Source: Candidatus Saccharimonadota bacterium
GTDB taxonomy: Archaea; Nanohalarchaeota; Nanosalinia; Nanosalinales; Nanosalinaceae
DNA length: 32,000 bases
Reading direction: 5' to 3'
Assembly: GCF_047555085.1 (NCBI RefSeq)
Contig: NZ_CP180230.1
Coordinates: 720,001-752,000 of the forward strand
Of the stretch, positions 1 through 32,000 are shown piece after piece. Under the pieces are notes generated by a model. That model was not told where the DNA came from and ran no database searches. It saw only the letters and a program-made list of their open reading frames with translations. How positions within the stretch are numbered: position 1 is the stretch's first letter; each line of letters begins with the position of its first letter. The position numbers and the translations under genes were made by a program.

Positions 1-55
1 AAAATTCTTTACAAGATTTAAAAAAGGCCTACTAAGAAAAACACAGGAAAAATTC

Positions 56-697
56 TCAAAGGCCTCTAACATCCGACTGAGAAAATCCTCCACGCGAAGC
101 ATTATACAAGGCCTTTATCGAGGCCTCCGGAAGAGGATAATCCCAGACACGGACATGAGCCAGTTTTCCTCTGCCATAGCTACCTCCATTTCTATTCTCA
201 CATATCTTATATGCATTGAACTGTCCAGAAGTCAAGTTAGAAGAAGTATCCAGAAGTTCACCATTCCTGTATGCCTTGGCACCATTGGGGCCGACTTTCC
301 AAACAATATTTACCCAGCCTGCTCCGTTAACATTATTCCATCTAAGTCTAGTATTGGATACTTCATTCAGAACAAGATTGCTTCCATTGTAATATAGCTG
401 AAGAGAATTAGATACAGTGTAGTCATCAGTTGTAGAAAAATATGAATTCTGTATATTATCTGTTTTCAGCCAGATAGAAACCGTATGACTCCCATTCCAG
501 TTAGGCGCAGAAGAATAAACGCGGCCATCCTGTCCATCAAACTCGTACGCAGATTCTCCCAGAGGCCCGGAAACGTCCTGCGTAACACCAACACTCAAAG
601 AACCATGATGCTCTCTCCCCGAATAATCCAAAGCATTTCCAGAGGCCTCCTGCAAAGGCCAGTATCCAACAGTCCGCGTAAATATTTTCGATCTCAT
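56..697 (-). CDS. LamG/concanavalin-A-like jelly-roll protein, single domain (module 1, member A1)
   Basis: 213-aa ORF with ATG at 697 and TGA at 56-58. Laminin_G_3-type pattern: 'VGYWPLQEASGNALDYSGREHHGS', 'AYEFDGQDGRV' and C-terminal 'GKLAHVRVWDYPLPEASIKALYN'. The first 17 and last ~30 residues nearly match A2 (19269..19931); the core is not alignable. No signal peptide is visible. Confidence 0.8.
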   Translation of the reverse strand: MRSKIFTRTVGYWPLQEASGNALDYSGREHHGSLSVGVTQDVSGPLGESAYEFDGQDGRVYSSAPNWNGSHTVSIWLKTDNIQNSYFSTTDDYTVSNSLQLYYNGSNLVLNEVSNTRLRWNNVNGAGWVNIVWKVGPNGAKAYRNGELLDTSSNLTSGQFNAYKICENRNGGSYGRGKLAHVRVWDYPLPEASIKALYNASRGGFSQSDVRGL

Positions 698-706
698 AAA
701 TTTGAT

Positions 707-1456
707 TCAGCTCCTCGAAAATCCCCAATTAGCATTTCTCCCAACATTATACAGCTTCCAGACCTGCTGCTGAGACAAGGCCTCAGAATAAATCCTTACT
801 TCATCGATCTCTGAGTTCCCTGATGTTACGCTGCCATTACTGTCATCATATCTGGCGCCTATTTGTGTATCCTTGGAATGTGATATAGATCCATAGGATG
901 CCGGCGAACCCGGATCATATGCAGTGGTTTCGGCCTCTGTACCATCCAGTAAAATCCTCATACTGTCTTTATCATTATCTCTCATAACCACTGCATGATG
1001 CCAGTTTCCATCAGCGACCACTTGAGTTGTCCTATATACAATCTCATCATTGCTTCCATCATCTATGGAAATTCTTAGATATCCTTGAATAATCCAGCTG
1101 TAAAAACCTGCAAAGCCTGCACTTTCATCCCTGTTATCAATAATAGGGACATTTCCGCTTGTATCGGAGGTCTTAAACCAAAAAGAGACACTGAATGATG
1201 AACTGCCGAATGTACTGGCAAAGCTATGTGGCACATTCACGTAATCATCGCTCCCATCAAAACTAAAGGCCTCAGAGCCTCCGACACCGGAAGCGCCTGT
1301 AGTAATTCCACCATTCAAAGATCCATCATTGCTCCCCCAGGAGTCACTGATAACACCTGAAGATACATCACTTGAATCCATACTCCAGCGACTAACAGCT
1401 GAAGAAGGCCTGACTTTGTCCGGATGTACAGTTGCCTCATTCAGATTTTTAGTCAT
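707..1456 (-). CDS. LamG-like domain protein (module 1, member B1)
   Basis: 249-aa ORF whose ATG overlaps the C1 stop (ATGA at 1453-1456). Hallmarks are 'SDSWGSNDGSLNGGITTG..SEAFSFDGSDDYVNV' and 'IDEVRIYSEALSQQQVWKLY'. Residues 1-73 and the last 33 match B2; the middle is divergent. Confidence 0.8.
   Translation of the reverse strand: MTKNLNEATVHPDKVRPSSAVSRWSMDSSDVSSGVISDSWGSNDGSLNGGITTGASGVGGSEAFSFDGSDDYVNVPHSFASTFGSSSFSVSFWFKTSDTSGNVPIIDNRDESAGFAGFYSWIIQGYLRISIDDGSNDEIVYRTTQVVADGNWHHAVVMRDNDKDSMRILLDGTEAETTAYDPGSPASYGSISHSKDTQIGARYDDSNGSVTSGNSEIDEVRIYSEALSQQQVWKLYNVGRNANWGFSRS
717..785 (-). repeat. 69-nt block identical to 19951..20019 (B C-terminus)
   Basis: Base-by-base comparison gives 69/69 identity, flanked by ~85-90% identity that runs through the B-A junction. 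Confidence 0.9.
1266..1342 (-). repeat. 77-nt block (1 mismatch) shared with 20476..20552 (B N-terminal region)
   Basis: 52 identical nt, one A/G difference, then 24 identical nt. Confidence 0.9.
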
Positions 1457-2823
1457 ACATCAAGGCCTCCCATCTCAACAATTTTTTGGATTTCACTCTG
1501 AGTTAGAGGCCTGTTGTATATACGGAAGTCTGATATCTTGCCGTCCAGGTGTTCGTAGTTGTAGCCTCCGAGAGAGATAAATTCCGGGGAAAGGGTTATT
1601 CCTGCGTCTGTTAAAGTATTCTTTTTCTGGCCGTTGTAGTAGAAGTCAACATCGTTTCCTGTGCCGTGATTTACAAGAGTCACAAGATTCCAGGAATTGT
1701 TCTCCCATTCAGAGACCGGCATCAATCCATCTCCCCACGGAGACTGGATCTTATCAGTCGCAGAATCATAGATATACACTCTATCCGAGTTATCAGGAGA
1801 ATCAAATAGATAATCCCCGTTAGTTCCATCTGCAGAAAGATTCTCCGTATTTGCCCAGAAAGAAATCGTATAAGTAGAAAGGCTTAGGGCGGAAGTATCT
1901 AACTGAACTTCTTCATTGTTAGCCGAATCAAAACTTCTGGCCTTCGCTCCTCCAAGGCCTACAGCCGTACTCGTACCTGTCACACTCGTAGAATCAAAAT
2001 TATTCCCGGATAGATCATAGGCCTTCCCTGCCGAGTCTTCATTGAGAGGCCAGTGCCCGACAAGGCCCGAAGTCAGTCTGTCCTGATCAGTAATATTTTG
2101 AGTAGACGTCCTCTGATACAGGGCCTCTACTTCTGCTGTGCTTAGCACTCTGTCATATATTCTGACGTCGTCTATCTGTCCGTTTAGACGGTCTGAAAGT
2201 GAGCCGTCATCTTTTACTCTTGCGCCGATGTATTTAGTATTAGAATTGGAGGTATCGTTTTCTCTTGTTCCTGTTGCATCCTGACTTGCGTCTACATAAC
2301 CTGTTAACTCTGTACCTCTTGCCACTAGGGCTATCTGATGCCAGTTTCCGTCGTTAACAGTTACAGAACCGTCCATAGTTCCCCAGTTGTAGTCCACAGT
2401 TCCATCAGAGTTAAATCCTATCTCAGCTCGCCTTGTGCCTGCTGTCCCACTCTGCCTGTCCGATATTATATATCCTGTAGATGTAGTTTTTACCCATAAA
2501 ACATAACTGTAATCATCCGATGCGGAAGCCCCCAGTCCCTGGAGAAAACCTCTGGAAGAAAAACTGACGTAGGAACTTCCATCAAAATCCTTTGCATCGC
2601 CTATTTTACCTGAGACGTATCCTGCTGAAGTATTATCTGTCCCGTTGTTGTCTAAGGCCTTGTCTTCGACCGTGCCGTCAAAAGGATAGTATGCAACGAG
2701 GCCGTCTGTCAAGCTCCCTAATTCGTAGCCCTGCTGGAGGCCTGCACTCAGACTGTCTTCTGTATCATCGGTTACGCCTGTCGAGTCTCTTCTTGTAAGT
2801 TCTTCAGAGTTCCAGCGTACCAT
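1453..2823 (-). CDS. Tandem two-LamG-domain protein (module 1, member C1)
   Basis: 456-aa ORF with two LamG_3 units, ending 'IDDVRIYDRVLSTAEVEALY' and 'ISDFRIYNRPLTQSEI'. The inter-domain linker is encoded by 134 nt identical to C2. It starts 36 nt downstream of tatC. Confidence 0.8.
   Translation of the reverse strand: MVRWNSEELTRRDSTGVTDDTEDSLSAGLQQGYELGSLTDGLVAYYPFDGTVEDKALDNNGTDNTSAGYVSGKIGDAKDFDGSSYVSFSSRGFLQGLGASASDDYSYVLWVKTTSTGYIISDRQSGTAGTRRAEIGFNSDGTVDYNWGTMDGSVTVNDGNWHQIALVARGTELTGYVDASQDATGTRENDTSNSNTKYIGARVKDDGSLSDRLNGQIDDVRIYDRVLSTAEVEALYQRTSTQNITDQDRLTSGLVGHWPLNEDSAGKAYDLSGNNFDSTSVTGTSTAVGLGGAKARSFDSANNEEVQLDTSALSLSTYTISFWANTENLSADGTNGDYLFDSPDNSDRVYIYDSATDKIQSPWGDGLMPVSEWENNSWNLVTLVNHGTGNDVDFYYNGQKKNTLTDAGITLSPEFISLGGYNYEHLDGKISDFRIYNRPLTQSEIQKIVEMGGLDV
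2042..2175 (-). repeat. 134-nt block identical to 21282..21415 (C inter-domain linker)
   Basis: Base-by-base comparison gives 134/134 identity. A further 30/30 block lies at 1931..1960 and 21171..21200. Confidence 0.9.
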
Positions 2824-2859
2824 TGTATAACTCTTTATTCTAATTGCTTGTTAAGTTTT

Positions 2860-3546
2860 CTACTTGTTTATCCTCTTCACGATATGTATACTGGCTTCGT
2901 ACAGGCCTAGCATAGGCAACGTGATCAAGGCCTGAGAGATTATATCAGGTGGTGTTGCGAAAGCAGCCAGCACCAAAACAGCTATGATAAAGTATCTGCG
3001 GTACTGCTTCATCATACCGGAATTTATAAGGCCTAGACGCGCCAGTAAAGCCGATATTATCGGCAGCTGGAAGAAGATCCCTGTGAAAGTGGAAAGTTTC
3101 AGTGCAAATCCTATAGTGCTTTGAAGGCCCCATACAGAGTTTACTGTGCTGGCTGATGAGAAGGCCTGGAAGAATGCAAGGCTTGTCTTGACTATGAACT
3201 GGTATGCGAAAGTCGCTCCTCCTATAAAAAGTATTATAGAGAAAGGTAGAAAGTTTCTGAGCGATGTGTACTCTCTTCTTGTAAGGCCTGGTTCTGCGAA
3301 CTTCAAGGCCTGGTAGACGATCACTGGAAGTGTCAGTACTATCCCTATGATTATTGAAATCATTAACTGGGTGTAGAAGACTTCGAAAGGTGTGAACGCG
3401 TTCAGACTGAATCCTAGATCAGTCTGGAAGAATGAAAGTATCATTCCGGATTTGTAGAAAACTCCTGCAGTGGCTAAAACTATGAATATAGAAGTGAAAA
3501 TCAGGCGTCTCCTGAGCTCTCTCAAATGGTGTTCAAAACTGTTCAT
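2860..3546 (-). CDS. tatC: Twin-arginine translocase subunit TatC
   Basis: 228 aa and polytopic. TatC motifs are 'HLRELRRRL', 'FAEPGLTRRE', 'FFQLP' and 'ATPPDIISQ...LYE'. It starts 16 nt downstream of tatA. Confidence 0.9.
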   Translation of the reverse strand: MNSFEHHLRELRRRLIFTSIFIVLATAGVFYKSGMILSFFQTDLGFSLNAFTPFEVFYTQLMISIIIGIVLTLPVIVYQALKFAEPGLTRREYTSLRNFLPFSIILFIGGATFAYQFIVKTSLAFFQAFSSASTVNSVWGLQSTIGFALKLSTFTGIFFQLPIISALLARLGLINSGMMKQYRRYFIIAVLVLAAFATPPDIISQALITLPMLGLYEASIHIVKRINK

Positions 3547-3562
3547 TGCTCAACAGGCCTTC

Positions 3563-3769
3563 TTACTCGCTAGAATCCTTAACGTCCTCTACCTCTGATT
3601 CTACATCCGGAGCAACGTCTTTGCCGACTTCCTCGGCTTCCTGCATAGACTTCTTGTACTCCTTCTTCGACTCACCCAGAGAACGGGCAAGCTGAGGTAG
3701 CTTCTTAGGACCTATAAGCAGAGCAAAAATCGCCGCTGCAATCAAGATAATCTCCCAGTTACCAAACAT
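3563..3769 (-). CDS. tatA: Twin-arginine translocase subunit TatA/E
   Basis: 68 aa. An N-terminal TM plus hinge 'WEIILIAAAIFALLIGPKKLPQLARSLG' is followed by an acidic tail. A TATA-like TATTTATT lies 22 nt upstream of the ATG. Confidence 0.85.
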   Translation of the reverse strand: MFGNWEIILIAAAIFALLIGPKKLPQLARSLGESKKEYKKSMQEAEEVGKDVAPDVESEVEDVKDSSE

Positions 3770-3791
3770 ACACCAGAATTACACTCGAATC

Positions 3792-3799
3792 AATAAATA
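3792..3799 (-). promoter_or_regulatory. TATA-box-like element upstream of tatA
   Basis: Minus-strand TATTTATT lies 22 nt before the ATG at 3769. It is preceded by T-runs (TTAATTTTTCTGTGTTTT) after the stop of gene D. Confidence 0.4.
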
Positions 3800-3828
3800 C
3801 CTTAGGCCTCAAAACACAGAAAAATTAA

Positions 3829-5187
3829 TCACAGGCCTCTACTGTTCACAGTGAACTTTCTCATGTCCCGGCCTCTAGTCCCCCAACGATACAGTTCGAA
3901 AATCTCTTCCGGGCTTAAAGCTCTGTTGTATACTCTCAAGTCATCGATGAGGCCTTGGAAGTACCCATAGGGATCTGGTGTCTGTTCATCTGTAGTCCCT
4001 CCTATATCTAATGGATAATCATTTGTCCATCCTGAAATATTGCCTGCACCTTCGTCCACTTTAACTCCGTCTACATAGGCTTTTACGCCGGCACCTTGCT
4101 CATATACTCCTGTGACATGATGCCAGTTACCATCACGAACTCCAGAGGCATACGCATAAGCATCGTTCGACCCATCCTGATAGGAAAAACGCAGATCTCT
4201 TTCACCATTGGTTATGATATCCCATACCTTATGCACCCCACCGGCAAGCTCTCCCTTCCCAACTAAAACATGAGAATAACCCGTAAGAGAAGATTTAAGC
4301 CAAAAAGAACACGTTAACGATTCTCCAGAACCGATATCAAACGCAACACTGTCCGAAACTTCTACTCTATCATCATTCCCGTCAAAATCAGCTGCCTGAC
4401 CTCTTATCGCATCATTACTCCACGAAAGACCTCCACTAGTTGTTCCGTTATTCGATCCCCAGGAATCATCCACGTTTCCATCAAAGGCCCAGCGAGAAAC
4501 AGCCGAAGAATCAGAATCATTCGGAGGCCTCGCATAATCTCCAGATCCCCATTCGTGTAGAGTCTTTATTTCATCGGATGAAAGTGTGCGGGAGTAGAAT
4601 CTTGCATCCGTCATGTTTACGTTGCTCCAGCTGTTGTATACCGCGGCGATCCAAAGAGGATCTGTGGACACGTTTGATGGAGATGGAACGGATGTAGTTG
4701 AGCCATCTAGCTCGCCGTCCAGATAAACTTTCCATTCTGATCCATCATATTGCAAGGCTACGTGATGCCATTTTCTGTCATCTACTACTGTATTACCTAT
4801 AACTTCTGTACTTCCACCACCCACACCGATGTAGAATTTATTCTGCTCTGGATGGCTGCTGTTAGAAAACTGTAAGCTAAACTGGCCTGCCTGATAAGTC
4901 TCATCTGCCGGGGACTGACCGAAAAACTTTTGCTCATCTCCAAAACTTCCTTTCCTTTTGATCCATGCTGTGAAAGTCCAAGGCGGAGAAGTAGTATCGA
5001 GATTGCTTCCGGAAACCTTTACAACATCATCGTTTCCGTCAAAACTGTAGCTTGTTAGGCCTCCTTTACCGGCTACACCTTGCGTAACACCGCCATTCAA
5101 AGATCCATGATTTCCGTTGCCAGAAAGATCATAGGCCTTTGATCCGGAATCTTCGTGTAGAGGCCACCAGCCAATTAATCCAGTCAT
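3829..5187 (-). CDS. Tandem two-LamG-domain protein (member D)
   Basis: 452 aa with two LamG_3 units. Unit starts are 'WWPLHEDSGSKAYDLSGNGNHGSLNGG..YSFDGNDDVV' and 'SRWAFDGNVDDSWGSNNGTTSGG..ADFDGNDDRV'; unit ends are 'TDARFYSRTLSSDEI' and 'IDDLRVYNRALSPEEI'. It ends in SRGL, as A1 ends in VRGL. Confidence 0.8.
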   Translation of the reverse strand: MTGLIGWWPLHEDSGSKAYDLSGNGNHGSLNGGVTQGVAGKGGLTSYSFDGNDDVVKVSGSNLDTTSPPWTFTAWIKRKGSFGDEQKFFGQSPADETYQAGQFSLQFSNSSHPEQNKFYIGVGGGSTEVIGNTVVDDRKWHHVALQYDGSEWKVYLDGELDGSTTSVPSPSNVSTDPLWIAAVYNSWSNVNMTDARFYSRTLSSDEIKTLHEWGSGDYARPPNDSDSSAVSRWAFDGNVDDSWGSNNGTTSGGLSWSNDAIRGQAADFDGNDDRVEVSDSVAFDIGSGESLTCSFWLKSSLTGYSHVLVGKGELAGGVHKVWDIITNGERDLRFSYQDGSNDAYAYASGVRDGNWHHVTGVYEQGAGVKAYVDGVKVDEGAGNISGWTNDYPLDIGGTTDEQTPDPYGYFQGLIDDLRVYNRALSPEEIFELYRWGTRGRDMRKFTVNSRGL

Positions 5188-5947: not shown

Positions 5948-6232
5948 TTAGTCAAGGTCTGTCCTGTACCACATCTGGCCTACTTCAGGATTGCTTGGAT
6001 CTGCTGTTCTCTTGTCAAGGACAAAGTTCTTGATCTCACCTGCAACTTCTGTTCCAGGCATACCGGAAAGAAAATTATTTCCATTAACATCAATAGAATC
6101 TGATCCAATCCTGACACGTGAAGCTGCAGAAGGAATAAGGCTTAAAGCACCAATGCTCAGAGATCCGATTCCAAGCATCTTCATGAAACCTCTGCGGGAA
6201 ACACCTTCCTCTTGTTCTATTTCTTCAGACAT
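5948..6232 (-). CDS. Small secreted protein with twin-arginine (Tat) signal peptide
   Basis: 94 aa. Tat motif 'VSRRGFMKM' is followed by the h-region 'LGIGSLSIGALSLIPSAAS', leaving a mature part of only ~55 aa. A TATA-like box lies 24 nt upstream. Confidence 0.7.
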   Translation of the reverse strand: MSEEIEQEEGVSRRGFMKMLGIGSLSIGALSLIPSAASRVRIGSDSIDVNGNNFLSGMPGTEVAGEIKNFVLDKRTADPSNPEVGQMWYRTDLD

Positions 6233-6354: not shown

Positions 6355-6398
6355 GAAACAAAAATGTAAGAAACGGGGAAAAAGGAAATAGAGGCCTT
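6355..6398 (-). terminator. Oligo-T termination region after rps7
   Basis: The minus strand after the TAA reads AAGGCCTCTATTTCCTTTTTCCCCGTTTCTTACATTTTTG, with two T5 runs. Archaeal RNAP terminates at oligo-T. Confidence 0.35.
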
Positions 6399-18468: not shown

Positions 18469-19263
18469 ATGAAGAAGCTGCTTGAAAATCCGGATTTCGA
18501 CGAGGCCTCTGAAATACTCGACGAATACCTGAAAAGAGATTTCACAGTCCAGATCAACGGCCTTTGTACAGTAAATTATCAGGGACGCGCCAAATCAAAG
18601 CTGGACAGAGGTGAAAGACTCGTGATAAAGAAGCAGGACTCTGCGATTCTGGTCCACGGGCCTGAGAACTATCAGCCGAAGAACTGGCAGCCGGAAGTCG
18701 ATTCATACAGCGTTGAGATAGACGAAGTTGAAGACGAGAAGACACTGGTTCTGGAGGCGAAAAGAACTAATCCTGATGAAATAGTGGAGATACGTTTCGA
18801 GGAGATCGAACTGCTTACAGTACACCAGTTAGTCGATAAATCAGATCTCAAGATCAGAGGCCACGAAGTAGACATCCACGAAGCGATCGAAGACGATCCA
18901 GAGATCGTCGAAGAAGGCCTAAAAATAGTGGAAAGAGAGAGGGAGACTCCCGCCGGATTCATCGACGTCTTCGCCCGTGATGAAAACGATAACTACGTTG
19001 TTATCGAAGTCAAGAGAAATCCAGACTACAACACAGTCTTGCAGCTCCAGAGATACGTAGATGAGATAGAAGAAGAGTTCTCCGGAAAGATAAGAGGAAT
19101 ACTTGTCGCACCGAAGATGACAGATAAAATCCTCAACTATCTGGAGGAAAGAGGCCTCGAATTCATCGAAGTCGAGATGGAAGACGTTATCGCATCGTAC
19201 GAGGCAATCGATCAGAGCCAGAAAGGCCTTTCCGACTTCGGAGCTGACTACACCGCAGAATAA
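18469..19263 (+). CDS. nucS: Endonuclease NucS/EndoMS (mismatch-specific, RecB-like nuclease fold)
   Basis: 264 aa. The N-terminal domain has 'LVIKKQDSAILVHG....P.NWQP'. The C-terminal domain has 'GFIDVFARDE.DNYVVIEVKR' and 'QLQRYV'. Confidence 0.85.
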   Translation: MKKLLENPDFDEASEILDEYLKRDFTVQINGLCTVNYQGRAKSKLDRGERLVIKKQDSAILVHGPENYQPKNWQPEVDSYSVEIDEVEDEKTLVLEAKRTNPDEIVEIRFEEIELLTVHQLVDKSDLKIRGHEVDIHEAIEDDPEIVEEGLKIVERERETPAGFIDVFARDENDNYVVIEVKRNPDYNTVLQLQRYVDEIEEEFSGKIRGILVAPKMTDKILNYLEERGLEFIEVEMEDVIASYEAIDQSQKGLSDFGADYTAE

Positions 19264-22048: not shown

Positions 22049-22069
22049 GGGTAGAAGTTTGTGTAATGA

Positions 22070-24381: not shown

Positions 24382-24400
24382 AAATCAAGGGAAAGTTTTT

Positions 24401-24883: not shown

Positions 24884-24913
24884 TGAAATCTTCACCTGTT
24901 GGAAATATGTGTT

Positions 24914-25049: not shown

Positions 25050-25096
25050 ATGAGAGGCCTTGTTTCAGGCCTCTATGAGTTTTTTAGTATAAATGT

Positions 25097-25336
25097 TTAT
25101 TCTGGACTTACGAAGAGTACGTTGTCTCCTCTTACGAACAGTCTGCCGTATTCTGTAGTGTTTTCTTCGCCTTTAACGGTGGCATTCTGTAGCCATACGT
25201 TTAGGTGTTTGTCGAAGGCCTGTAGTTCTCCTGAAACTGTTGTCTCCTCTCCTCCGAACTTCTTGAGTTTAATCAGTACGTTTCCTTCCTTTGCCTTATC
25301 TAGTACGTCAAAAGGACGCTTGTTGTTGTTAGCCAT
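25097..25336 (-). CDS. Archaeal Sm-like (LSm) protein
   Basis: 79 aa. Sm1 is 'RPFDVL......VLIKLK..G....SGELQAFDKHLNVWL'. Sm2 is 'LFVRGDNVLFVSP'. Confidence 0.8.
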   Translation of the reverse strand: MANNNKRPFDVLDKAKEGNVLIKLKKFGGEETTVSGELQAFDKHLNVWLQNATVKGEENTTEYGRLFVRGDNVLFVSPE

Positions 25337-25504
25337 GTAAAAGCTGCACCTGTAACACTGGATAGGCCTAACAAATTATATAAATGCTGTTAGTTTCCAG
25401 CGTTTTAAGCAAGTTCTAGACGGAATTTTTGCGGAGAAAAAATGAGGCCTCAAGGTAAAAAGTTGAGTAGTTGAGATGAGAAGTAGAGATCTGGAGAGGA
25501 GTTT

Positions 25505-25882
25505 TTATTCCTCTACCAGTGTTGCGTTGACTACGCCGTCCTGTCCAGGCCTTGACGTGATTCTGGCCTTTCCTTCGCTTGTCTGGATGATTGTTCCTTT
25601 GGTTAGGAGGCTTCTGCGGACGTAGTTGTCGTTCGCCGGGTTGTCGACTACTGATTCGATTTCAGCGTTTTTTACTTCTCCGTCGACTGAAATGTTAACT
25701 TTTTCGCTTCTTTTGGCGACGCTTTTCTGTGTGCTTCCTCGTGCGTCTTTAGTTACAACTTTCTGCTCTCCCAGTCCTGGACTGGAGAACTCTCTTCCTA
25801 GATCATACTTTCTGGACTTCCGGTAAGCCCTGGTTTTACCGCCTGACTTCTTTGTCTGGGACCTATCATGTCTTACAGCCAT
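25505..25882 (-). CDS. rps8e: 30S ribosomal protein S8e (eS8)
   Basis: 125 aa: 'RSQTKKSGGK....RKSRKY.LGRE', 'NPANDNYVRRSLLTKGTIIQT..G.ARITSRPGQDGVVNA'. TTTAAATA lies 23 nt upstream of the ATG. Confidence 0.9.
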   Translation of the reverse strand: MAVRHDRSQTKKSGGKTRAYRKSRKYDLGREFSSPGLGEQKVVTKDARGSTQKSVAKRSEKVNISVDGEVKNAEIESVVDNPANDNYVRRSLLTKGTIIQTSEGKARITSRPGQDGVVNATLVEE

Positions 25883-25905
25883 AGAACCTTTTTCAGGCCT
25901 AAAAT

Positions 25906-25913
25906 TATTTAAA
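25906..25913 (-). promoter_or_regulatory. TATA-box-like element upstream of rps8e
   Basis: Minus-strand TTTAAATA lies 23 nt before the ATG at 25882. Confidence 0.5.
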
Positions 25914-25992
25914 ACAGGGCAACATATGGTAGAGAAATCTTGTCGAATACGTACAGAATGAAAAGTAAAGAAAATGATATGGAGTGATCCAA

Positions 25993-26103
25993 TTAACCTA
26001 GGATGCCTCTTGCAGCAGTAACTACCCTGCTTAGAAGCCTGTCCTGTGAGAACTGGACTGGTATCTGATGTCCGGTGTCGTCAAGAAAATCTGACTCAAC
26101 CAT
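25993..26103 (-). CDS. Candidate leaderless small ORF (36 aa) or 5' end of an ncRNA
   Basis: The ATG at 26103 sits 22 nt downstream of the TATA-like TTTATAAG (26126-33). That spacing matches the other leaderless genes here. Translation is MVESDFLDDTGHQIPVQFSQDRLLSRVVTAARGILG. No homology was recognised. Confidence 0.25.
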   Translation of the reverse strand: MVESDFLDDTGHQIPVQFSQDRLLSRVVTAARGILG

Positions 26104-26125
26104 ACTACCAAGATCCCGGTTAAAG

Positions 26126-26133
26126 CTTATAAA
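26126..26133 (-). promoter_or_regulatory. Orphan TATA-box-like element in the rps8e/GTPase spacer
   Basis: Minus-strand TTTATAAG lies 22 nt before the ATG at 26103. Confidence 0.35.
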
Positions 26134-26247
26134 CCTAAACCAAAAAACACGCTTATCGTTCAGAAAGGTTCAAAACCGTTTATACAGGCCTCAAAACAGG
26201 AATAACGATCGCTAAAAGTTCTGGAAATTTCAGGGCCTCTACAGGAC

Positions 26248-27324
26248 CTAAATATGTCTTAGAGTGAGTTGAAGAATATCTTCATCCTCTAACTCATGTT
26301 CAAGGCCTACCTTCTGCTCCGGGAACTTTGAACTAGGCCCTGTCACTCTGGCATGCTTGAATCGATCCTTCATATCGCCTGGCAGGAATTCAAGAGCATC
26401 TTCTATAGTATCTCCTTCTCTGAGGATCAGGGGCTCGTCTTTATCCGGCTCCTCGTTTTTCTCCTTCATGTACACTCTTAACAGCCCCATCTTCTCGAAA
26501 ATCATGTCTCTGAGTTCTCCAAGGCCTTCACCAGTCTCTGCGGAGATCAAAAGATCGTATTCATCGAATTCAGATCTGTCATCAATCATATCTGCCTTGT
26601 TGATGACCTTGATGCCTGGAAGATACTTTCTATTGTCCATAAGCGCATCGATGAATCTGTCAAGGCCTAAATCCTCTCTGATTATTACTTCAGCGTTAGT
26701 ATAGCCGTTTTCATACATTAAATCCTGTATTGTATCTTCCTGTATGTCAAGATCTACTGTTGATGAGACGTTGATTCCTCCCCTGTCCTTTTTCTCTACT
26801 CTAACATTTGGAGGCTTTTTGTTCATTCTGAGGCCTGCTTTATAGACTTCGTCCGTGATCTCCTTTTCTCTCATCTCTTCAGGATCAAGAACTATCAGGA
26901 TAAGATCAGCGTTTCTTACTACGGAGAGTACCTGTGTTCCTCCGCCTCTACCGTCTGCTGCCCCTCCGATGAGGCCTGGGACGTCAAGTATCTGTATATT
27001 TGCTCCTTTATGCTTCAGCATTCCCGGATTAACTTCCAGAGTTGTGAACTCGTATGCACCGGTGTCAACTTCTGCATTCGTTAGCTCGTTGAGAAGTGTT
27101 GATTTGCCGACACTGGGAAAACCGACTAGAGCGACAGTTGCATCGCCTCTTTTTTCAACGGCGTATCCGGATGTATCTCCTGTACCTTTCGCCAGTTTCT
27201 GTTTCTTCTCCTTTAGCTTGGCGATCTGGCTTTTGATACGGCCTCTCTCCTTCTCAGTAGCCTTATTCACAGGAGTTTTCTGGAGTTTTTCCTCCAGTTC
27301 CTCGATACGGTCCTCAACGCCCAT
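26248..27324 (-). CDS. DRG/Obg-family GTPase with C-terminal TGS domain
   Basis: 358 aa. G1 is 'GFPSVGKSTLLN', G2 is 'YEFTTL', G3 is 'DVPGLI' and G4 is 'NKAD'. The N-terminus is a coiled coil, and the C-terminal 'ARV.G.S..F..Q.VG..H.L.DEDI' is TGS-like. Confidence 0.85.
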   Translation of the reverse strand: MGVEDRIEELEEKLQKTPVNKATEKERGRIKSQIAKLKEKKQKLAKGTGDTSGYAVEKRGDATVALVGFPSVGKSTLLNELTNAEVDTGAYEFTTLEVNPGMLKHKGANIQILDVPGLIGGAADGRGGGTQVLSVVRNADLILIVLDPEEMREKEITDEVYKAGLRMNKKPPNVRVEKKDRGGINVSSTVDLDIQEDTIQDLMYENGYTNAEVIIREDLGLDRFIDALMDNRKYLPGIKVINKADMIDDRSEFDEYDLLISAETGEGLGELRDMIFEKMGLLRVYMKEKNEEPDKDEPLILREGDTIEDALEFLPGDMKDRFKHARVTGPSSKFPEQKVGLEHELEDEDILQLTLRHI

Positions 27325-27367
27325 AACTGTAAACGCCTGTACAAACTTGAAAAAACCATCTACATTT

Positions 27368-28585
27368 TCAGCTGATCAGTATTCTTCCGTTCTCAGGCCT
27401 GAAACTGGCTCCTTCCTTCAGACGAGCAGCCCCGAAGCTCAGTATATCAAATGACCCATGCCAGCTCCCTGACAAAACAGTAGAGTTGGAAACATTCAAG
27501 GTAGCTTTAGAGCCCAGAGACTCAAACACAGAAGAGACCTCAGACTGAAAGACAGAAGAAAGCTCGAAAGATCTGCCTGAAATATCGTGAGTTGAGTTCG
27601 ATATACACTCGTTGAAGAGGCCTCTACGATCGCAGATAACGAAATCACTCTGATAGCGTATCAGGACGACTCCTGACCCTCCGTCTCCTCCAGATCCAAA
27701 TTCATAGTTACCTCCTCCGCCACCTCCACCCGTATTTTCCATAGCATTATGACCATCAGCTGATGATGATTGCCCATCGCTTGGCGCAGCACTATTGCCC
27801 CCTCCTCCTTGACCTCCATAGGCAGCTCTCACTTCTCCAGATATATCTGTTCGGCCTTCATGCCCTCCTCCGCCACCTCCTGCAAACCAGCCATTTTCTC
27901 CATATTCATCTCCGAATACATCCCCGTAGTATACTCCATCTCCACCATCTCCTGGCTGTTGAATATATTCATCAGAACATTCAGAATCTAGTCCTGTTTC
28001 TCCAGCACCACCTCCACCAGCTGCTAGACCTGATCTACCACAGTTAACATCGGCATCACCTCCTGAATACCCATTACTTGTCAAAGATTCTCCTCCTGTC
28101 CCATAATCTGTTCCGCCTCCACCTCCTGAAGCACCATCTTTTCCATCACAACCATGTGGTGCACCACCCCCACCTCCCTCAACAGAGATAGATCCGAAAC
28201 TGGATTTCTCACCGTTTTCAGCATTATTTTTCGCTCCATAACCACAGGAACCATCCCCCGGATTAGTTCCTCCGTTACCACCATCTCCAACAGATATAGA
28301 AATAGTATCATTCTGTGAAACATCAACGCTATCATAGACAACACCACCAGCACCACCACCGCCGCCTCTAGTAGCACCGCCTCCACCCCCACCAGCTACT
28401 ACAAGTACGTGTGCCTCATCCACGTTGTCAGGAACAGTCCATGTATGATTACCTACCTGCTCAAAGGCCTTAACCTCGTACTCCTGTGCAGAAGAAATGG
28501 ATAAACCTGCGACCAGGATAAGTATGAACAGGCCTGTAAATTTTCTGAAGCAAGATTTTTGCAACTGATACTGCACCTCTAACAT
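27368..28585 (-). CDS. Secreted or anchored glycine-rich repeat protein
   Basis: 405 aa with an N-terminal hydrophobic segment 'FTGLFILILVAGLSISSAQE'. It carries 'HTWTVPDNVDEAHVLVVAGGGGGG', 'ISISVGDGGNGG' and '..GGSGVVLIRY', as in proteins labelled glycine-rich domain-containing. It also has several Cys residues and a non-Gly C-terminal ~100 aa. Confidence 0.65.
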   Translation of the reverse strand: MLEVQYQLQKSCFRKFTGLFILILVAGLSISSAQEYEVKAFEQVGNHTWTVPDNVDEAHVLVVAGGGGGGATRGGGGGAGGVVYDSVDVSQNDTISISVGDGGNGGTNPGDGSCGYGAKNNAENGEKSSFGSISVEGGGGGAPHGCDGKDGASGGGGGTDYGTGGESLTSNGYSGGDADVNCGRSGLAAGGGGAGETGLDSECSDEYIQQPGDGGDGVYYGDVFGDEYGENGWFAGGGGGGHEGRTDISGEVRAAYGGQGGGGNSAAPSDGQSSSADGHNAMENTGGGGGGGNYEFGSGGDGGSGVVLIRYQSDFVICDRRGLFNECISNSTHDISGRSFELSSVFQSEVSSVFESLGSKATLNVSNSTVLSGSWHGSFDILSFGAARLKEGASFRPENGRILIS

Positions 28586-28706
28586 CTAGTTTCGCATAAC
28601 TGAGTGAAAAAGAAACCCCCATAAGAAGGAAACATTTTACAGATAAATATGAAGATCGATGATAAAAAGAGAATATGCATGGAGGGCCCAGTTGAGGCCT
28701 CTCAGT

Positions 28707-29006
28707 TTACTCTTCGACTTTCTCGATGCTTCCGTCCCTGCTGATGTTCAGCTGGATGTCGTCTGCCCATTCACGGACGTAGGCGCCTTCGATATGTACT
28801 TTAGCTCCTTCCTCGATGGCATCAATTTCCTCTTCCCAAAGCGTCAGGTCGACCTGTCCGGTGTCGTCCTCGAAAACCACAGTAACAATCCTTTTCTGCC
28901 CATATCTTGTGGATACTGCTCTTGGAGTTGGAAGTTCAGCGATTTCTCCTGTGATTTCGACATCGTCAGCTTCAGGGTCGAGTTCCTCAACTGTCATCTC
29001 AGTCAT
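28707..29006 (-). CDS. OB-fold nucleic-acid-binding protein (RPA/SSB-like single OB)
   Basis: 99 aa. The pattern 'V.ITGEI.....R.......G...V....FEDDTGQVDLTLWEEE.....EG..V.IEGAYV.EW......LN' is typical of tRNA_anti/RPA-type OB folds. Confidence 0.55.
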   Translation of the reverse strand: MTEMTVEELDPEADDVEITGEIAELPTPRAVSTRYGQKRIVTVVFEDDTGQVDLTLWEEEIDAIEEGAKVHIEGAYVREWADDIQLNISRDGSIEKVEE

Positions 29007-29034
29007 TATGTATCAACTAACTACCACGTAGCAA

Positions 29035-30012
29035 TTGAAACTTAAAAGGATTTTCCTGCATCTAAGAGGCCTTTCTGCACCTCAAACCGTAAAAACTTTT
29101 ACAGCGAAAAACTTGAATGTGAAAACTCCCTGGGGCTACTCTAAAAAGATCGAACAGCTGGAGGATAAAATCGAACAGCTGGAGGAAGAATTAGAGGCCT
29201 CTAAAAATGAAAAAGAAAAGTTTCAGGAACGCTTCGAGGCTGAAAAAGAAAGAAGAAGCGACCTCTCCAGGAAAAAACAGGAAGCAGAAGAGAAACTGAA
29301 CAAACTTCAGCAGAAGCTGGAGAACAGACCTCAGAAAAATGATAAACAAGAGGAAAAAAGAGAAGATAGAAACAGAGACATCGAACTTGGCTTCGAAGAA
29401 GTAATGAGAGGCCTGGAGAAAACATCTACAGTTAACTCAGATGAAGAGGATTTACTGACTGTCTACAGCGGGAAGAACAGTCTAGACGATTTAAAGGCGC
29501 TGAAGAACTCTGTCAGCCAGGAAGTTTTCACTGAGATCCAGAAAGACGGAAGCTCTGTAGTCTTCACGGATGAAAAGTTTTTCCGCTGGAAGATCAGGAC
29601 AAGGCCTTTCCTAGAAAGCTTCTGGAGCCTTGGGAAAAATTTCAGGCCTGGAAAAATCCTTGATTTTGTAGAGAAGGAAAAGTACTGGGTGCTGGCCTCT
29701 ATGGGAGAGACCGAAATTTTCAGAGAGGCCTCAGGAAGTTTCGAGAAAGTTGATCGCGTGAAGACTCGTGTCAACAGGAAGCAGAAGAAAGGCGGATTCT
29801 CGCAGGGAAGATTTGAGAGGAAGAGGGAAGAACAGATATCAGGACACGTGAAGAAAGTTAACGAGGCCTTGAAAGAAATCAGTGGAGAAATTTTTGTCCT
29901 CGGCGATAAGAGATTGTGCGAGGATATCGATGCAGAGTATCTTGGCGGCTTTGATTCCTCGAGGCCTGTTTCTGCGGATGTATTTTATAACTTCAAGTTC
30001 ATTCGTTTCTAG
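29035..30012 (+). CDS. Vms1/ANKZF1-like (eRF1-fold) peptidyl-tRNA hydrolase homolog with N-terminal coiled coil; N-terminus uncertain
   Basis: 325-aa ORF. 'RKQKKGGFSQGRFERKREEQISGHVKKV' parallels the eRF1 'GRGGQSA.RFARLR......V.KV' loop, with the Gln shifted (GGFSQ). Residues ~35-110 are a K/E-rich coiled coil. Before Met124 the only start candidates are TTG 29035, TTG 29113 and GTG 29119. Confidence 0.5.
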   Translation: MKLKRIFLHLRGLSAPQTVKTFTAKNLNVKTPWGYSKKIEQLEDKIEQLEEELEASKNEKEKFQERFEAEKERRSDLSRKKQEAEEKLNKLQQKLENRPQKNDKQEEKREDRNRDIELGFEEVMRGLEKTSTVNSDEEDLLTVYSGKNSLDDLKALKNSVSQEVFTEIQKDGSSVVFTDEKFFRWKIRTRPFLESFWSLGKNFRPGKILDFVEKEKYWVLASMGETEIFREASGSFEKVDRVKTRVNRKQKKGGFSQGRFERKREEQISGHVKKVNEALKEISGEIFVLGDKRLCEDIDAEYLGGFDSSRPVSADVFYNFKFIRF

Positions 30013-30014
30013 TT

Positions 30015-30719
30015 ATGCCGAATCCGAAAAATGTTTCTGAGGATGAGATCCGTGAAATCTATCAGGGCCTGAAAGATCGTTACGGAGAGGCCCCTGAGCC
30101 GAGCAGCATGTCCGGTGTTGATTATCTTGTTGAAACTATTCTTTCTCAGAACACGAACGATATCAATCGTGACAAGGCCTTCAAGCAGCTGAAAGAAAAA
30201 TACGATTCCTGGGAGAAAGTCGAAAAAGGAGATTACGAGGAGCTTGTCGATACTATCAGAGTAGCGGGATTAGGCCCGACAAAGGCGGAGAGAATACAGG
30301 AGGCCTTGCGGATCACCAGGGAGCGTGAAGATGAGTACAGCATCGAGTTCCTGAACGATATGAGTGTTGAAGAAGGGAAGAAATGGCTGACAGACATCCC
30401 TGGCATAGGCCCCAAGACAGCTGCTGTGATACTTTGCTTCCATTTCAAGAAGCCTGTGATCCCCGTCGATACACATGTCCACAGGATCTCGAAAAGATTC
30501 GAACTAGTGCCGGAGAAGGCCTCGAGGACGAAAAGTCACGACATTTTAGAAGAAATCGTGCCGGATGAAATCAAGTATGGATTCCATAGATTACTTATCA
30601 CGCATGGAAGAGAGACATGTAAATCTAAAGGCCACGTCGACAATGAAAACTGCTTCGAGAGATGTAAGTACTACAGAGAAGTTGTCATAGGCGGAAAAGA
30701 TCCGAAAGAATTCGTTTAA
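30015..30719 (+). CDS. nth: Endonuclease III-like HhH-GPD DNA glycosylase
   Basis: 234 aa: 'LVETILSQNTND.N', 'LGP.KAERIQ', the HhH 'L.DIPGIGPKTAAVIL' and 'VDTHV.RI..R'. The C-terminal Cys cluster looks incomplete (three Cys). Confidence 0.8.
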   Translation: MPNPKNVSEDEIREIYQGLKDRYGEAPEPSSMSGVDYLVETILSQNTNDINRDKAFKQLKEKYDSWEKVEKGDYEELVDTIRVAGLGPTKAERIQEALRITREREDEYSIEFLNDMSVEEGKKWLTDIPGIGPKTAAVILCFHFKKPVIPVDTHVHRISKRFELVPEKASRTKSHDILEEIVPDEIKYGFHRLLITHGRETCKSKGHVDNENCFERCKYYREVVIGGKDPKEFV

Positions 30720-30813
30720 ATTCTGGAAAAATTTTTTTGAGAAAATATATGTGAAAGGCCTGTCTTGCAACAGGCGTGAATTTGTATAGGAACTCAGGAA
30801 ACGACTGGAGGAA

Positions 30814-31038
30814 TTATTCCTCGTGATCGTGGTCGTGTCCTGGCTGTTCCATTCCTTCCTGCTGTTCCTGCATCTCCTCGACGATCTGCTGTGCGCGTTC
30901 GTTGATATCTTCCTGTGAAACGACGTCTTCTTCGTCTAGGATGTTAAGCAGGGCCTGAACTGTAAGTTCAAGGTTACCTAGCTTCTGCTGGAATAGCTGC
31001 ATGATCTGCTGTTCGTTCATTTCTGGTTGTTCTGGCAT
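30814..31038 (-). CDS. Small acidic Gln/Glu-rich protein with His/Asp-rich C-terminal tail
   Basis: 74-aa ORF ending in 'PGHDHDHEE'. No recognised family. Confidence 0.4.
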   Translation of the reverse strand: MPEQPEMNEQQIMQLFQQKLGNLELTVQALLNILDEEDVVSQEDINERAQQIVEEMQEQQEGMEQPGHDHDHEE

Positions 31039-31157
31039 AATTAATTGACACCTCTTAAAGTGAATAAAACAAGAGTTCTCTTGAACTCTTTTAAATGCGC
31101 ATACCTGTCACGAGGAAAAAGAAGGCCTCGAAAGAAAAATAAAGCACAGAAGGCCTT

Positions 31158-31568
31158 TTAAGCCGAGTTAAGAGGGTTTCTGGCTCCGCAGGCCTGGCAC
31201 TTCAGAAGCTGGACGCCTTTTTCCTTAACGATCTCTGTATCAGGGCTGTCACACTCCGGGCAGAAAACAAAGTCTTCAGCGAAGTTCTGTAGCCTTCCCT
31301 GAATATTTCCTCTTCTGAGCTCTCCATTAAGTACAAGCTCTCCCTCCTTCAGTCTTCCTGCAGTACCCAGTTCATTCTGCAGATACTTGGAAAGCCTGTC
31401 CTTCTCCCTGTTAAGCTTATCCGCTATCTCGGAAAAGTTTACAACTATAGTTTTAGATCCATCCTTCCTGGTATCTACTTCAGGCATCTCGAAACGTTCA
31501 CCGGATCCTGATTCTTCCGGTACTTCTTCCAGGCCTTTTTCCAGGAGATCTTCATAATCGTCAGTCAT
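31158..31568 (-). CDS. eif2b: Translation initiation factor aIF-2 beta subunit
   Basis: 136 aa: 'RFEMPEV......KT.V.NF.EIA..L.R......KYL..ELGT.G', and the zinc ribbon 'CPECDSPDT......LKCQACG'. Confidence 0.9.
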   Translation of the reverse strand: MTDDYEDLLEKGLEEVPEESGSGERFEMPEVDTRKDGSKTIVVNFSEIADKLNREKDRLSKYLQNELGTAGRLKEGELVLNGELRRGNIQGRLQNFAEDFVFCPECDSPDTEIVKEKGVQLLKCQACGARNPLNSA

Positions 31569-31609
31569 AAAAGAAAGTTAGAACGTGAATTTCTTAATTC
31601 AAGCGGTAT

Positions 31610-32000
31610 CTACTCTTTTTCAGAAACGGGAAATTCTCCGAACTCAAAATTTTCGTCGGCTTGATACTTCAACTCTATCAGTAACTGAGCTTGTCTCGAC
31701 ATCTCATCAGCATTTTCCGGATACCGCTCCTCTAAATCTAGGGCCTCTGTGACAGATCCACGGACGAATCCTGCGAAATCTCTTTCTCTCAATCTATCTG
31801 CCTGCTCCATCCTCTCCGCTTCAACGGCGTCAAAGGCCCTCTCCATATCCCTCCATGTATCCAGGCCTTCAACGATATCATAAGGAGTGGAACTTCTCCT
31901 TCCCTCTACTTCCTCCAGGCCCAGTATCCTGGGAACATTTGTCTCTGGTATTCCATCGGCGTGCCACTTCCTGTCCGAGTATCTGTCAGAACTATCCGTG
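31610..32000 (-). CDS. Hypothetical protein, 5'-truncated by the window edge
   Basis: I translated upstream of the ORF-track Met (31846). The frame stays open to position 32000 ('..PRILGLEEVEGRRSSTPYDIVEGLDTWRDMERAF..'), so the gene probably starts outside the window. Confidence 0.45.
   Translation of the reverse strand, partial: TDSSDRYSDRKWHADGIPETNVPRILGLEEVEGRRSSTPYDIVEGLDTWRDMERAFDAVEAERMEQADRLRERDFAGFVRGSVTEALDLEERYPENADEMSRQAQLLIELKYQADENFEFGEFPVSEKE

Follow-up and report, generated by a model that had tools for sequence, protein, structure and literature searches.

Highly iterated palindromes (HIPs) are the closest described counterpart of the sequence analyzed here, the hexamer AGGCCT in one contiguous stretch of 32,000 nt of DNA (this whole stretch is hereafter called the window). 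Judged by its gene content, the source organism is a Nanosalina-like member of Nanohaloarchaeota. HIP1 (GCGATCGC) is the highly iterated palindrome of cyanobacteria, in which alternate HIPs occur as well (Elhai 2015, PMC4390886; Xu, Lawrence & Durand 2018, PMC5861425); in Synechococcus sp. PCC 6312 it is replaced by CAGGCCTG (PMC5861425; bioRxiv 10.64898/2026.06.24.733823). According to Elhai, the one-off variants of HIP1 show a surplus at outer positions and a depletion at central ones (PMC4390886), and a quasi-periodicity of 10-90 kb has been reported for it. Its function and origin have been debated for about 30 years, with a repair ratchet, selection on chromosome architecture and an uptake signal as the proposals, and the phenomenon has until now been treated as cyanobacterial.

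Both HIPs and AGGCCT are short, G+C-rich perfect palindromes, enriched 15-300-fold in the former and with an observed/expected ratio (O/E) of 20.2 in the window for the latter. Each is found in every reading frame as well as in intergenic DNA, is more conserved in position than the background and is present or replaced from one lineage to the next. The one-off variants of each are biased to the outer bases flanking a 4-6-bp methyltransferase-type core, and for both the candidate causes are a ratchet, selection or uptake. Of the defining features of a HIP, AGGCCT shows at least 15-fold enrichment, occurrence in all frames and in intergenic DNA beyond codon usage, and positional conservation. 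It lacks the cyanobacterial host, which is a taxonomic and not a mechanistic feature. The octamer CAGGCCTG holds the identical AGGCCT hexamer, together with the GGCC core that is a known methylation target. In contrast, its C/G flanks are fixed and it is known from one cyanobacterium, whereas C..G flanks surround only 5 of the 129 sites described here. Further differences lie in density (about 1 per kb for the HIP1 octamer versus 4 per kb for the AGGCCT hexamer), in host (cyanobacteria versus a DPANN archaeon whose genome measures about 1 Mb) and in repair setting (MutS/L versus NucS/EndoMS, the mismatch repair visible here). Unlike for HIP1, no cognate methyltransferase was identified in the ~98 kb of motif-rich DNA that was read. 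The AGGCCT case adds a quantified saturation of coding opportunities and a reshaping of the proteome.

Three other kinds of system are worth comparing. Uptake signal sequences (USS, Haemophilus) and DNA uptake sequences (DUS, Neisseria) are 9-12 nt long, non-palindromic and found about once per kb, often in inverted pairs that act as terminators. Like AGGCCT, they are genome-wide, lineage-specific oligomers of coding and non-coding DNA, are thought to be spread by molecular drive, through biased uptake and recombination, and can alter proteins; AGGCCT differs from them as a 6-nt palindrome without extension. Very-short-patch (VSP) systems act only on T:G mismatches and have modest compositional effects. 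In Dcm/Vsr (CCWGG, E. coli) and in M.MthTI (GGCC) with Mig.MthI (Methanothermobacter), a Type II methylation site is linked to site-restoring repair, and the GGCC core of M.MthTI is also that of AGGCCT. The footprint of such systems would be gain by T→C changes only, at the methylated cytosine, and selective depletion of T variants, whereas AGGCCT is also gained by transversion and over several steps, with an effect of 20-90-fold. Restriction-site avoidance (Gelfand & Koonin 1997; Rusinov et al. 2015, PMC4687349) is related in that AGGCCT is a Type II site (StuI) and that GGCC has an O/E of 0.44-0.85 in motif-poor relatives, but its sign is opposite to the extreme enrichment of AGGCCT. For archaea, our literature search, of incomplete coverage, returned no account of either AGGCCT enrichment or HIP-type palindromes. 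AGGCCT is best filed as an archaeal hexameric variant of the HIP phenomenon, a second, independent case in a minimal archaeal genome.

Enrichment of AGGCCT in the window

The window contains exactly 129 copies of AGGCCT, or one per 248 bp, in agreement with the count given in a preliminary description of this DNA. Its expectation of about six copies also holds: base composition predicts 6.4, a first-order Markov model 6.8, and dinucleotide-preserving shuffles (n=100) gave 6.95±2.79 with a maximum of 18. The G+C content of 46.0% is higher than the roughly 44% that had been estimated. Among all 4096 hexamers AGGCCT ranks first by frequency, and the runner-up palindrome, TCCGGA, reaches an O/E of only 3.6. 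Single-base variants were said to be far rarer, and those at the outer positions indeed number 11-17 each. Maximal- and high-order Markov models were tried and rejected as nulls. Most occurrences of the motif's sub-words come from the motif itself (order 4 predicts 124 sites), so the signal is absorbed into the null, which is therefore invalid here.

The gene model was derived from open reading frames (ORFs) with Pfam and NCBIfam support and was later corrected for the extension of rpoB', the tRNA and a short LSM start. Before this correction, the coding sites number 113 and fall into the three codon phases as 17/44/52, as expected from the earlier observation that every phase is used. A shuffle of synonymous codons within genes, which keeps the proteins and per-gene codon usage, left 16.8±3.8 coding sites (maximum 28), and a whole-codon permutation 7.8±2.9. 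Failure against a codon-preserving shuffle had been set beforehand as the outcome that would overturn the claim, and the enrichment survives it. Non-coding DNA of the corrected gene model, 2062 nt with a G+C content of 36%, holds 18 sites, that is 8.7 per kb and an O/E of about 89. The synonymous shuffle, this 89-fold enrichment and the presence or absence of the motif among relatives with near-identical proteins (see below) thus strongly support a cause at the DNA level and not in amino acids or codons, as the preliminary description had proposed when it spoke of a DNA-level function or drive. The data show that the force acts on the exact palindrome in double-stranded DNA.

The unit of enrichment is the bare hexamer, and neither a longer motif nor a repeat element is involved. 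The 7-mers and 8-mers around AGGCCT occur at their maximal-order Markov expectation (ratios 0.87-1.14), flank composition is flat past ±1, and the commonest 10-mers have at most five occurrences each in the window. An R-AGGCCT-Y flank preference noted earlier is fully explained by the hexamer and its coding context. GGCC is preceded by A in 72% and followed by T in 77% of its occurrences; the product of these frequencies gives 124 AGGCCT, close to the observed 129, so the half-sites AGG and CCT behave independently. The sites show no oriented or paired arrangement, and their spacing is Poisson-like (coefficient of variation, CV, 1.00), so that the gaps of about 1 kb, whose positions had been listed correctly, were rightly not taken for foreign islands. 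The extended conserved sequence or inverted repeats around a core that mark repetitive extragenic palindromic elements (REP) and miniature inverted-repeat transposable elements (MITE) are absent.

These results leave a negligible probability to the idea that AGGCCT is a by-product of codon usage, of amino-acid composition or of a hidden MITE/REP family, or an assembly or adaptor artefact. Within-gene codon usage does lift the expectation from 6 to 17, but this is far from the 113 coding sites, and it leaves aside the non-coding excess and the lack of flank conservation or of a longer word. Independent assemblies from ENA, JGI, NCBI and TARA samples contain the same sites in the same frame, and close relatives with near-identical proteins are without the motif. 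By the shuffles and by this conservation across assemblies, the by-product or artefact explanation is refuted.

Distribution of the hexamer among relatives

Syntenic contigs of relatives (designated by L numbers) were obtained via exact-protein look-ups, and RpoA' scans of genome and metagenome contigs gave the relatives L007, L008, L013, L009 and L087 among the matches listed. The loci fall into two groups. Besides the window, the motif-rich group comprises L293 (O/E 24.9), L168 and L169 (18.7 and 19.6), L006 (14.5), L167 (11.6) and L004 and L005 (about 9). The motif-poor group comprises L001 (2.9), L294, a Ca. Nanosalina sp. (2.1), L002 and L003 (1.0), L087 (1.0), L170-L172 (0.9) and L295 (0.6). 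As a control, about 80 archaeal rpo loci among the matches listed have O/E values of 0-3.5. The motif-rich lineages are diverged from one another, with nucleotide identities of 72-85% and four-fold-site identities of 0.44-0.56, and in a neighbour-joining tree they are about as distant mutually as from the poor clade of L170, L294 and L295. The enrichment is thus specific to some lineages and is on or off among relatives with near-identical proteins.

Where L167 and L168 continue past the end of the window (MCM, TBP, RNase P), O/E is still about 14.5, so the enrichment is not a property of this neighbourhood. The expectation that it would be found outside the window was borne out to this extent, in the relatives.

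GGCC as such also differs between the groups. Its O/E of 0.44-0.85 was found in the AGGCCT-poor L170, L294, L295, L002, L087, L007, L008 and L013, and it is 1.8-2.8 in the rich lineages. The scarcity in the poor relatives looks like ordinary restriction avoidance that was lost in the rich clade. The opposite extreme to the symbiont clade is a potential host-type haloarchaeal stretch, L023 (22.5 kb of the Halorutilales archaeon chromosome CP169074.1), with 0 AGGCCT against 6.7 expected.

A distribution of this kind might also arise if AGGCCT served in DNA uptake or self-recognition. A surface, uptake or recombination protein would prefer DNA with AGGCCT, and the sites would spread within the population by biased transfer and recombination, as in the USS/DUS type of drive, or would be selected as marks of self, the symbiont being joined to its haloarchaeal host by cytoplasmic contact. 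Such a process predicts the same statistics as are reported here, including gains from any precursor, retention, on/off lineages and the non-coding excess; Pilin_N-type genes, although generic, are encoded in related loci; and, if L023 is representative, the density of AGGCCT could tell symbiont from host DNA. HIP1 has recently been tied to methylation-dependent transformation and is reported to correlate with DNA-transfer machinery. Nevertheless, we regard this explanation as unlikely. A 6-mer offers little specificity compared with uptake sequences of 9-12 nt, nothing past the hexamer is enriched, the sites are neither oriented nor paired, and perfect palindromy is not a feature of known USS or DUS. 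In the loci read, no competence or uptake gene was linked to the trait, and the inference on the host is based on one 22-kb locus.

AGGCCT hyper-abundance may have arisen in other lineages too. A scan of viral contigs for clustered AGGCCT gave tandem repeats, polyomaviruses (GAGGC T-antigen sites), L255 and the pair L174/L249, none of them linked to nanohaloarchaea. L174 and L249 (IMG/VR UViG_3300029432_000018 and 3300045988_144701) are related AT-rich contigs (G+C 0.36) with dispersed AGGCCT at an O/E of 15-33, and their proteins gave no family matches. L255 is a bacterial-type plasmid or phage element (Rep3, ParA, integrase, DnaB-primase; G+C 0.525) with dispersed, non-tandem AGGCCT at an O/E of 8.

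Gain and retention of sites

The outgroup state is known for 52 sites of the window. Half of these (26) can be reached by a purely synonymous route, and the other 26 need an amino-acid difference. Synonymous routes often take two or three steps, for example from CGT-CCA or CGC-CCA to AGG-CCT. At three conserved Arg-Pro positions of RpoA' (Table 1), the codon pairs in motif-poor relatives are CGT-CCT/CGT-CCA, AGA-CCT/CGG-CCA and CGC-CCA/AGA-CCA, so that up to three synonymous changes converged on AGGCCT. Replacements in the highly conserved DRG GTPase are ENL→EGL and LDL→LGL; NucS shows RDL→RGL and RadC EP→RP. In poor genomes, AGGACT is the commonest state at phase-2 capable positions (20 of 105, with the Gly codon GGA), and its conversion to AGGCCT needs an A→C transversion.

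The one-off variants were compared as ratios of their O/E in rich to that in poor genomes. The central ones are depleted (AGACCT/AGGTCT 0.51x, AGTCCT/AGGACT 0.56x, AGCCCT/AGGGCT 0.74x), those at positions 2 and 5 are unaltered or a little raised (1.15-1.58x, with AAGCCT/AGGCTT at 1.15x), and the outer variants are in surplus (2.0x, 2.1x and, for GGGCCT/AGGCCC, 8.75x). This bias toward outer positions around a methylase-type core is the one described for HIPs, with the caveat that codon structure contributes to it.

The preliminary description had named a methylase plus VSP-type T:G repair among its candidates, that is, an m5C (5-methylcytosine) methylase together with a T:G endonuclease or glycosylase that would turn AGGTCT/AGACCT or AGGCTT/AAGCCT into AGGCCT. 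GGCC is a common methylation target in archaea, an HhH-GPD glycosylase is encoded in the window, and AGGTCT/AGACCT is about half as frequent in rich as in poor lineages and recurs as a one-off state at orthologous positions. The depletion that was to be looked for in the one-mismatch neighbours is thus present for one pair, but it does not extend to AAGCCT/AGGCTT. Moreover, the transversion near-site AGGACT/AGTCCT is depleted as strongly as the T:G-type one and is the commonest ancestral state, and many sites needed two or three changes or amino-acid replacements. The glycosylase is EndoIII-1-like and also present in poor lineages, and the effect of VSP repair in E. coli is small and not 20-90-fold. 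As the sole cause, a pure VSP route is largely refuted, and we consider it highly improbable.

Retention was measured from same-position hexamers in codon alignments. From the window to L006, 20 of 22 AGGCCT sites (91%) are retained, compared with 39% of other hexamers, while four-fold sites are 56% identical. The corresponding values toward the window are 11/13 (85%) versus 28% from L004, 30/42 versus 24% from L168 and 13/18 (72%) versus 20% from L167. Saturation alone would yield some overlap, and the comparison was therefore repeated for positions that are site-capable in both genomes. The probability of a site in the second genome given a site or none in the first was 1.00/0.50, 0.86/0.30, 0.65/0.00 and 0.56/0.00. 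The difference has the same direction in all nine genome pairs, with Fisher p values of 0.001-0.008 in four of them and 0.07-0.39 in five.

Most of the sites in a less saturated genome are also present in the more saturated ones. Lineage-private sites are found on every branch of the motif-rich group, so the process has been active along all branches. No polymorphism at AGGCCT sites was seen in the near-identical assembly pairs L004/L005 and L168/L169. Together, these data show that near-sites of all kinds are converted, be it by a transition or transversion, over several synonymous steps or by replacement of an amino acid, and that the sites are then retained.

Saturation of coding opportunities and density

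AGGCCT can be encoded by the peptides Arg-Pro, [K/E/Q]-Ala-[F/L/S/Y/C/W] and [residue with an A-ending codon]-Gly-Leu. We defined saturation as the share of peptide positions able to encode AGGCCT synonymously that do so. It is 73% in the window (115/158, with 18/21 for Arg-Pro), 68-74% in L293, L168 and L006, 45-46% in L167 and L004, 24% in L001, 17% in L294 and 5-7% in the other poor relatives. Pooled values are 243/340 for four rich genomes versus 18/210 for poor ones, and Arg-Pro saturation in rich genomes is 82-86%. The intermediate values of L001 and L294 could mean that accumulation is at an early stage, that the sites are decaying since the driver was lost, or that the driver allele is a weaker one.

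The proteome itself has shifted. Site-capable peptides are about twice as frequent in rich lineages, with 17-19 per 1000 aa versus 9-10 in poor ones for the same orthologous genes. In ~1975 aligned orthologous residues, there are 33-38 site-capable positions in rich lineages, 27 in L167 and 18-20 in poor ones. This shows a force strong enough to override the amino-acid sequence in conserved proteins.

Within the window, AGGCCT density rises as constraint falls: it is 2.2 per kb in the rpo genes, 4.6-6.1 per kb in less conserved blocks (the Laminin_G_3 clusters, the RadC-NucS block and the region 22133-32000) and highest in the spacers, at the non-coding density given above. The statement that the motif sits in almost every spacer was too strong, as 10 of the 20 spacers of at least 30 nt carry it. 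The particular sites reported directly past the stops of rps7, the 22133 gene and aIF-2beta and the two copies just upstream of the tRNA are correct (Table 1). The ATG-AGG-CCT at 15069 is not a gene start but part of an internal conserved V-M-R-P of RpoB'. A local peak follows stop codons: in 10 of 107 genes of motif-rich loci, a site starts between the last base of the stop and +4 nt, roughly four times the 2-3 sites of nearby 5-nt bins. These sites have the form TAA-(A)-AGGCCT-C and were seen in the window, L167, L168 and L004. They could be a termination-context or transcript-end signal, or just occupy the first unconstrained bases past the gene.

Such conservation and placement might be read as selection, in which each site is advantageous through binding of an abundant chromosome-structuring or nucleoid protein or through a methylation-based regulatory or replication function. 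In favor of this, positional conservation lies far above background, which is the argument of Xu et al. for HIP1, the motif is palindromic and found in all frames and in spacers, and the post-stop peak is local. Against it, a saturation of 71-86% and the replacements in conserved enzymes mean that selection would have to be effective at over 4000 sites in each 1-Mb genome of a symbiont that depends on its host. Diminishing returns would be expected of a collective function, the sites are randomly spaced (CV 1.0), and no candidate binding protein was found in the motif-rich loci read. We judge selection improbable as the cause, and a spacing-dependent or dose-limited function in particular fits poorly with random spacing and constraint-linked density.

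Proposed cause

Near-saturation, random spacing, the dependence of density on constraint and the proteome shift lead us to favor molecular drive over site-by-site selection. Our leading proposal, to which we would not quite give an even chance, is that AGGCCT is the archaeal counterpart of HIPs, maintained by a per-site molecular drive keyed to a lineage-specific recognition protein, likeliest a methyltransferase. As AGGCCT is a perfect palindrome with independent halves AGG and CCT, the agent would be a protein that binds this sequence as a homodimer and that the motif-rich clade has acquired or activated. AGGCCT is the specificity of StuI, and a StuI-type or GGCC-core DNA methyltransferase would be the most likely agent. 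Methylation-coupled biased mismatch correction, or gene conversion, would then resolve heteroduplexes of site and near-site toward the site, in a mechanism modelled on Elhai's ratchet for HIPs.

Several points weigh against this proposal. No methyltransferase, restriction endonuclease or Vsr/MutH-like gene was found in the window and ~66 kb of other motif-rich loci, which together (~98 kb) amount to less than 10% of a genome of ~1 Mb. The only mismatch-repair route visible is NucS/EndoMS, for which we know of no methyl-directed strand choice, and Elhai's MutHLS-style ratchet therefore cannot be transplanted unchanged. The genome-wide extent of the enrichment is inferred only from the flanks of relatives past the window's end, and part of the surplus of outer variants is codon structure, for example Leu CTN versus TTR for AGGCCC. 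For the statistics computed, drive and selection predict nearly the same values, and Xu et al. interpret the same kind of HIP1 conservation as selection (PMC5861425).

NucS/EndoMS is about 84-87% identical among lineages and is present in both motif-rich and motif-poor ones, and the HhH-GPD glycosylase is likewise encoded in both. Being common to rich and poor lineages, neither is the determinant. A more specific scenario, which we consider less likely than not, is that a single gained recognition enzyme (a methyltransferase for AGGCCT or the GGCC core, or a relative), coupled to NucS or homologous-recombination-type repair or to DNA exchange, constitutes an independently evolved, genome-wide archaeal HIP drive. 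It would have rewritten about 70-85% of the synonymous opportunities and about doubled the matching peptides of the ~1-Mb genome. Drive, uptake or exchange, and selection for a bound protein are not separable with these data, and the latter two are serious rivals. Overall, the observation in the preliminary description is confirmed, its interpretation is partly supported, and none of its three candidates (chromatin-protein binding, uptake or self-recognition, methylase with VSP-type repair) was confirmed.

The on/off sister lineages, with a saturation graded from 5% through 17-24% and 45% to more than 70%, amount to a natural experiment. Sister lineages of both kinds exist at 75-85% identity, some with near-complete contigs, and the responsible gene should be among the few present in rich and absent in poor genomes. 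Motif-rich examples are GCA_022729205.1/JALDAO01, ERZ27265933 k141_22192, ERZ28435192 k141_547723 and TARA_SAMEA6034237 scaffold_614; motif-poor sisters are GCA_042216425.1 and the L170 lineage (ERZ24792057/ERZ24792104), whose contigs reach 799 kb. The strength of the force is measurable because amino-acid sequence is overridden in conserved enzymes. If an archaeal HIP drive is real, the causal gene and the origin of HIP-type palindromes become open to comparative genomics, and StuI/HaeIII-type digestion or methylation provides an easy experimental read-out. In practice, AGGCCT is a strong signature for binning and host assignment in this nanohaloarchaeal clade, and it distorts the inference of codon usage, of ratios of nonsynonymous to synonymous substitution (dN/dS) and of horizontal gene transfer.

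Features and gene content of the window

The sites and the features discussed above are listed in Table 1.

Table 1. Positions of AGGCCT sites and of associated features in the window (position 1 is its first nucleotide).
Feature	Position	Strand	Remarks
AGGCCT starts, part 1	25, 60, 109, 121, 643, 778, 1267, 1406, 1463, 1507, 1955, 2019, 2655, 2738, 2903, 2928		
AGGCCT starts, part 2	3029, 3162, 3284, 3306, 3555, 3804, 3833, 3950, 4525, 5057, 5133, 5193, 6392, 6506, 7560, 7632		
AGGCCT starts, part 3	7948, 8639, 8823, 9188, 9293, 10330, 10885, 11217, 11349, 11643, 11962, 12009, 12866, 12917, 13208, 13723		
AGGCCT starts, part 4	14441, 14560, 14576, 15069, 16025, 17285, 17364, 17617, 17772, 17890, 17976, 18127, 18316, 18449, 18503, 18915		
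AGGCCT starts, part 5	19152, 19224, 19334, 19865, 20012, 20477, 20616, 20642, 20673, 20836, 21195, 21259, 21811, 21963, 21999, 22125		
AGGCCT starts, part 6	22215, 22445, 22569, 22689, 23067, 23228, 23348, 23888, 24018, 24123, 24451, 24558, 24699, 24777, 25055, 25067		
AGGCCT starts, part 7	25216, 25364, 25445, 25547, 25895, 26186, 26303, 26522, 26663, 26831, 26972, 27395, 27618, 28465, 28530, 28695		
AGGCCT starts, part 8	29067, 29195, 29409, 29602, 29644, 29726, 29864, 29962, 30175, 30301, 30517, 30756, 31123, 31151, 31190, 31531, 31863		
AGG-CCT, conserved Arg-Pro of RpoA'	12866-12871, 12917-12922, 13208-13213	minus	codon alignment
AGG-CCT, conserved internal V-M-R-P of RpoB'	15069-15074	minus	common to L006, L004, L168
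DRG GTPase E-G-L site	26522-26527 (feature 26514..26527)	minus	L167 and motif-poor L170: E/Q-N-L (GAATCT)
DRG GTPase L-G-L site	26663-26668	minus	other state L/M-D-L
Non-coding site past the rps7 stop	6392-6397		1 nt past the stop; TAA-A-AGGCCT-C on coding strand
Further post-stop sites	22125-22130, 31151-31156, 3555-3560		first: 22133 gene; second: aIF-2beta
Two non-coding sites upstream of the tRNA	25055-25060, 25067-25072		6 and 18 nt upstream
Intron-containing tRNA gene, 136 nt	24914-25049	minus	Rfam 55.7 bits
Non-coding site in 74-nt divergent spacer	18449-18454		14 nt upstream of nucS/endoMS start codon
NucS/EndoMS mismatch endonuclease	18469..19263	plus	context gene
HhH-GPD (EndoIII-1-like) DNA glycosylase	30015..30719	plus	context gene

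The window encodes an archaeal RNA polymerase operon (rpoH-B''-B'-A'-A''), further information-processing genes (a NusA-like KH protein, S12, S7, S8e and aIF-2beta), NucS/EndoMS, RadC, TatC, an EndoIII-family glycosylase and a DRG GTPase. The last of these has homologues named Ca. Nanosalina, Ca. Nanohalobium or Nanohaloarchaea, and the closest named RpoA' among the matches listed is from Ca. Asbonarchaeaceae. ARAGORN detected no tRNA in the window, and Rfam detects the one in Table 1.

Two candidates for a factor behind the enrichment were examined and rejected. One was the HhH-GPD glycosylase, as a possible T:G enzyme of the MIG type, but it matches EndoIII-1 of D. radiodurans (4UNF, 5.5e-35) far better than MIG (1KEA, 1.6e-6). 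An acidic 181-aa ORF beside nucS (17849-18394), considered as a clade-specific factor, gave no family match and has no DNA-binding character; its homologue was found in L168/L169 only.

Laminin_G_3 (concanavalin-like) proteins form two clusters of seven, at 56-5187 (flanking tatC) and 19269-22099, and a small protein with a twin-arginine translocation (TAT) signal is encoded at 5948-6232. The symbiont probably secretes these proteins or carries them on its surface. The clusters have no orthologues at syntenic positions in relatives; with 4.6-5.1 AGGCCT per kb, they are compositionally native, given this high density.

The gene at 22405-24381 (plus strand) encodes a 658-aa fusion protein in which a glutamine-amidotransferase/asparagine-synthase module is joined to a diphthamide-synthase (Dph6-like) domain; the fusion is conserved at every related locus, with lengths of 650-675 aa. 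What looks like a 249-nt spacer between rpoB'' and rpoB' (15078-15326, minus strand; 2114-2364 in L006) is coding. One frame reads ITDVFLDGQIVDDVDSPEEIRENLIEKRREGELDQEVSVYYNENRDEIRINTDSGRVMRPVV and aligns colinearly with the N-terminal part of RpoB' in L168 and L004. No ATG, GTG or TTG occurs in this frame downstream of the preceding stop, and RpoB' in the window and L006 probably starts at a non-canonical codon (ATT?).

TCCGGA, the runner-up palindrome, has an O/E of 2.4-5.7 in the window, L168, L293, L295, L170 and L009, that is, in AGGCCT-rich and AGGCCT-poor lineages alike. Its enrichment is a separate, family-wide feature, possibly with Ser-Gly coding as its source.

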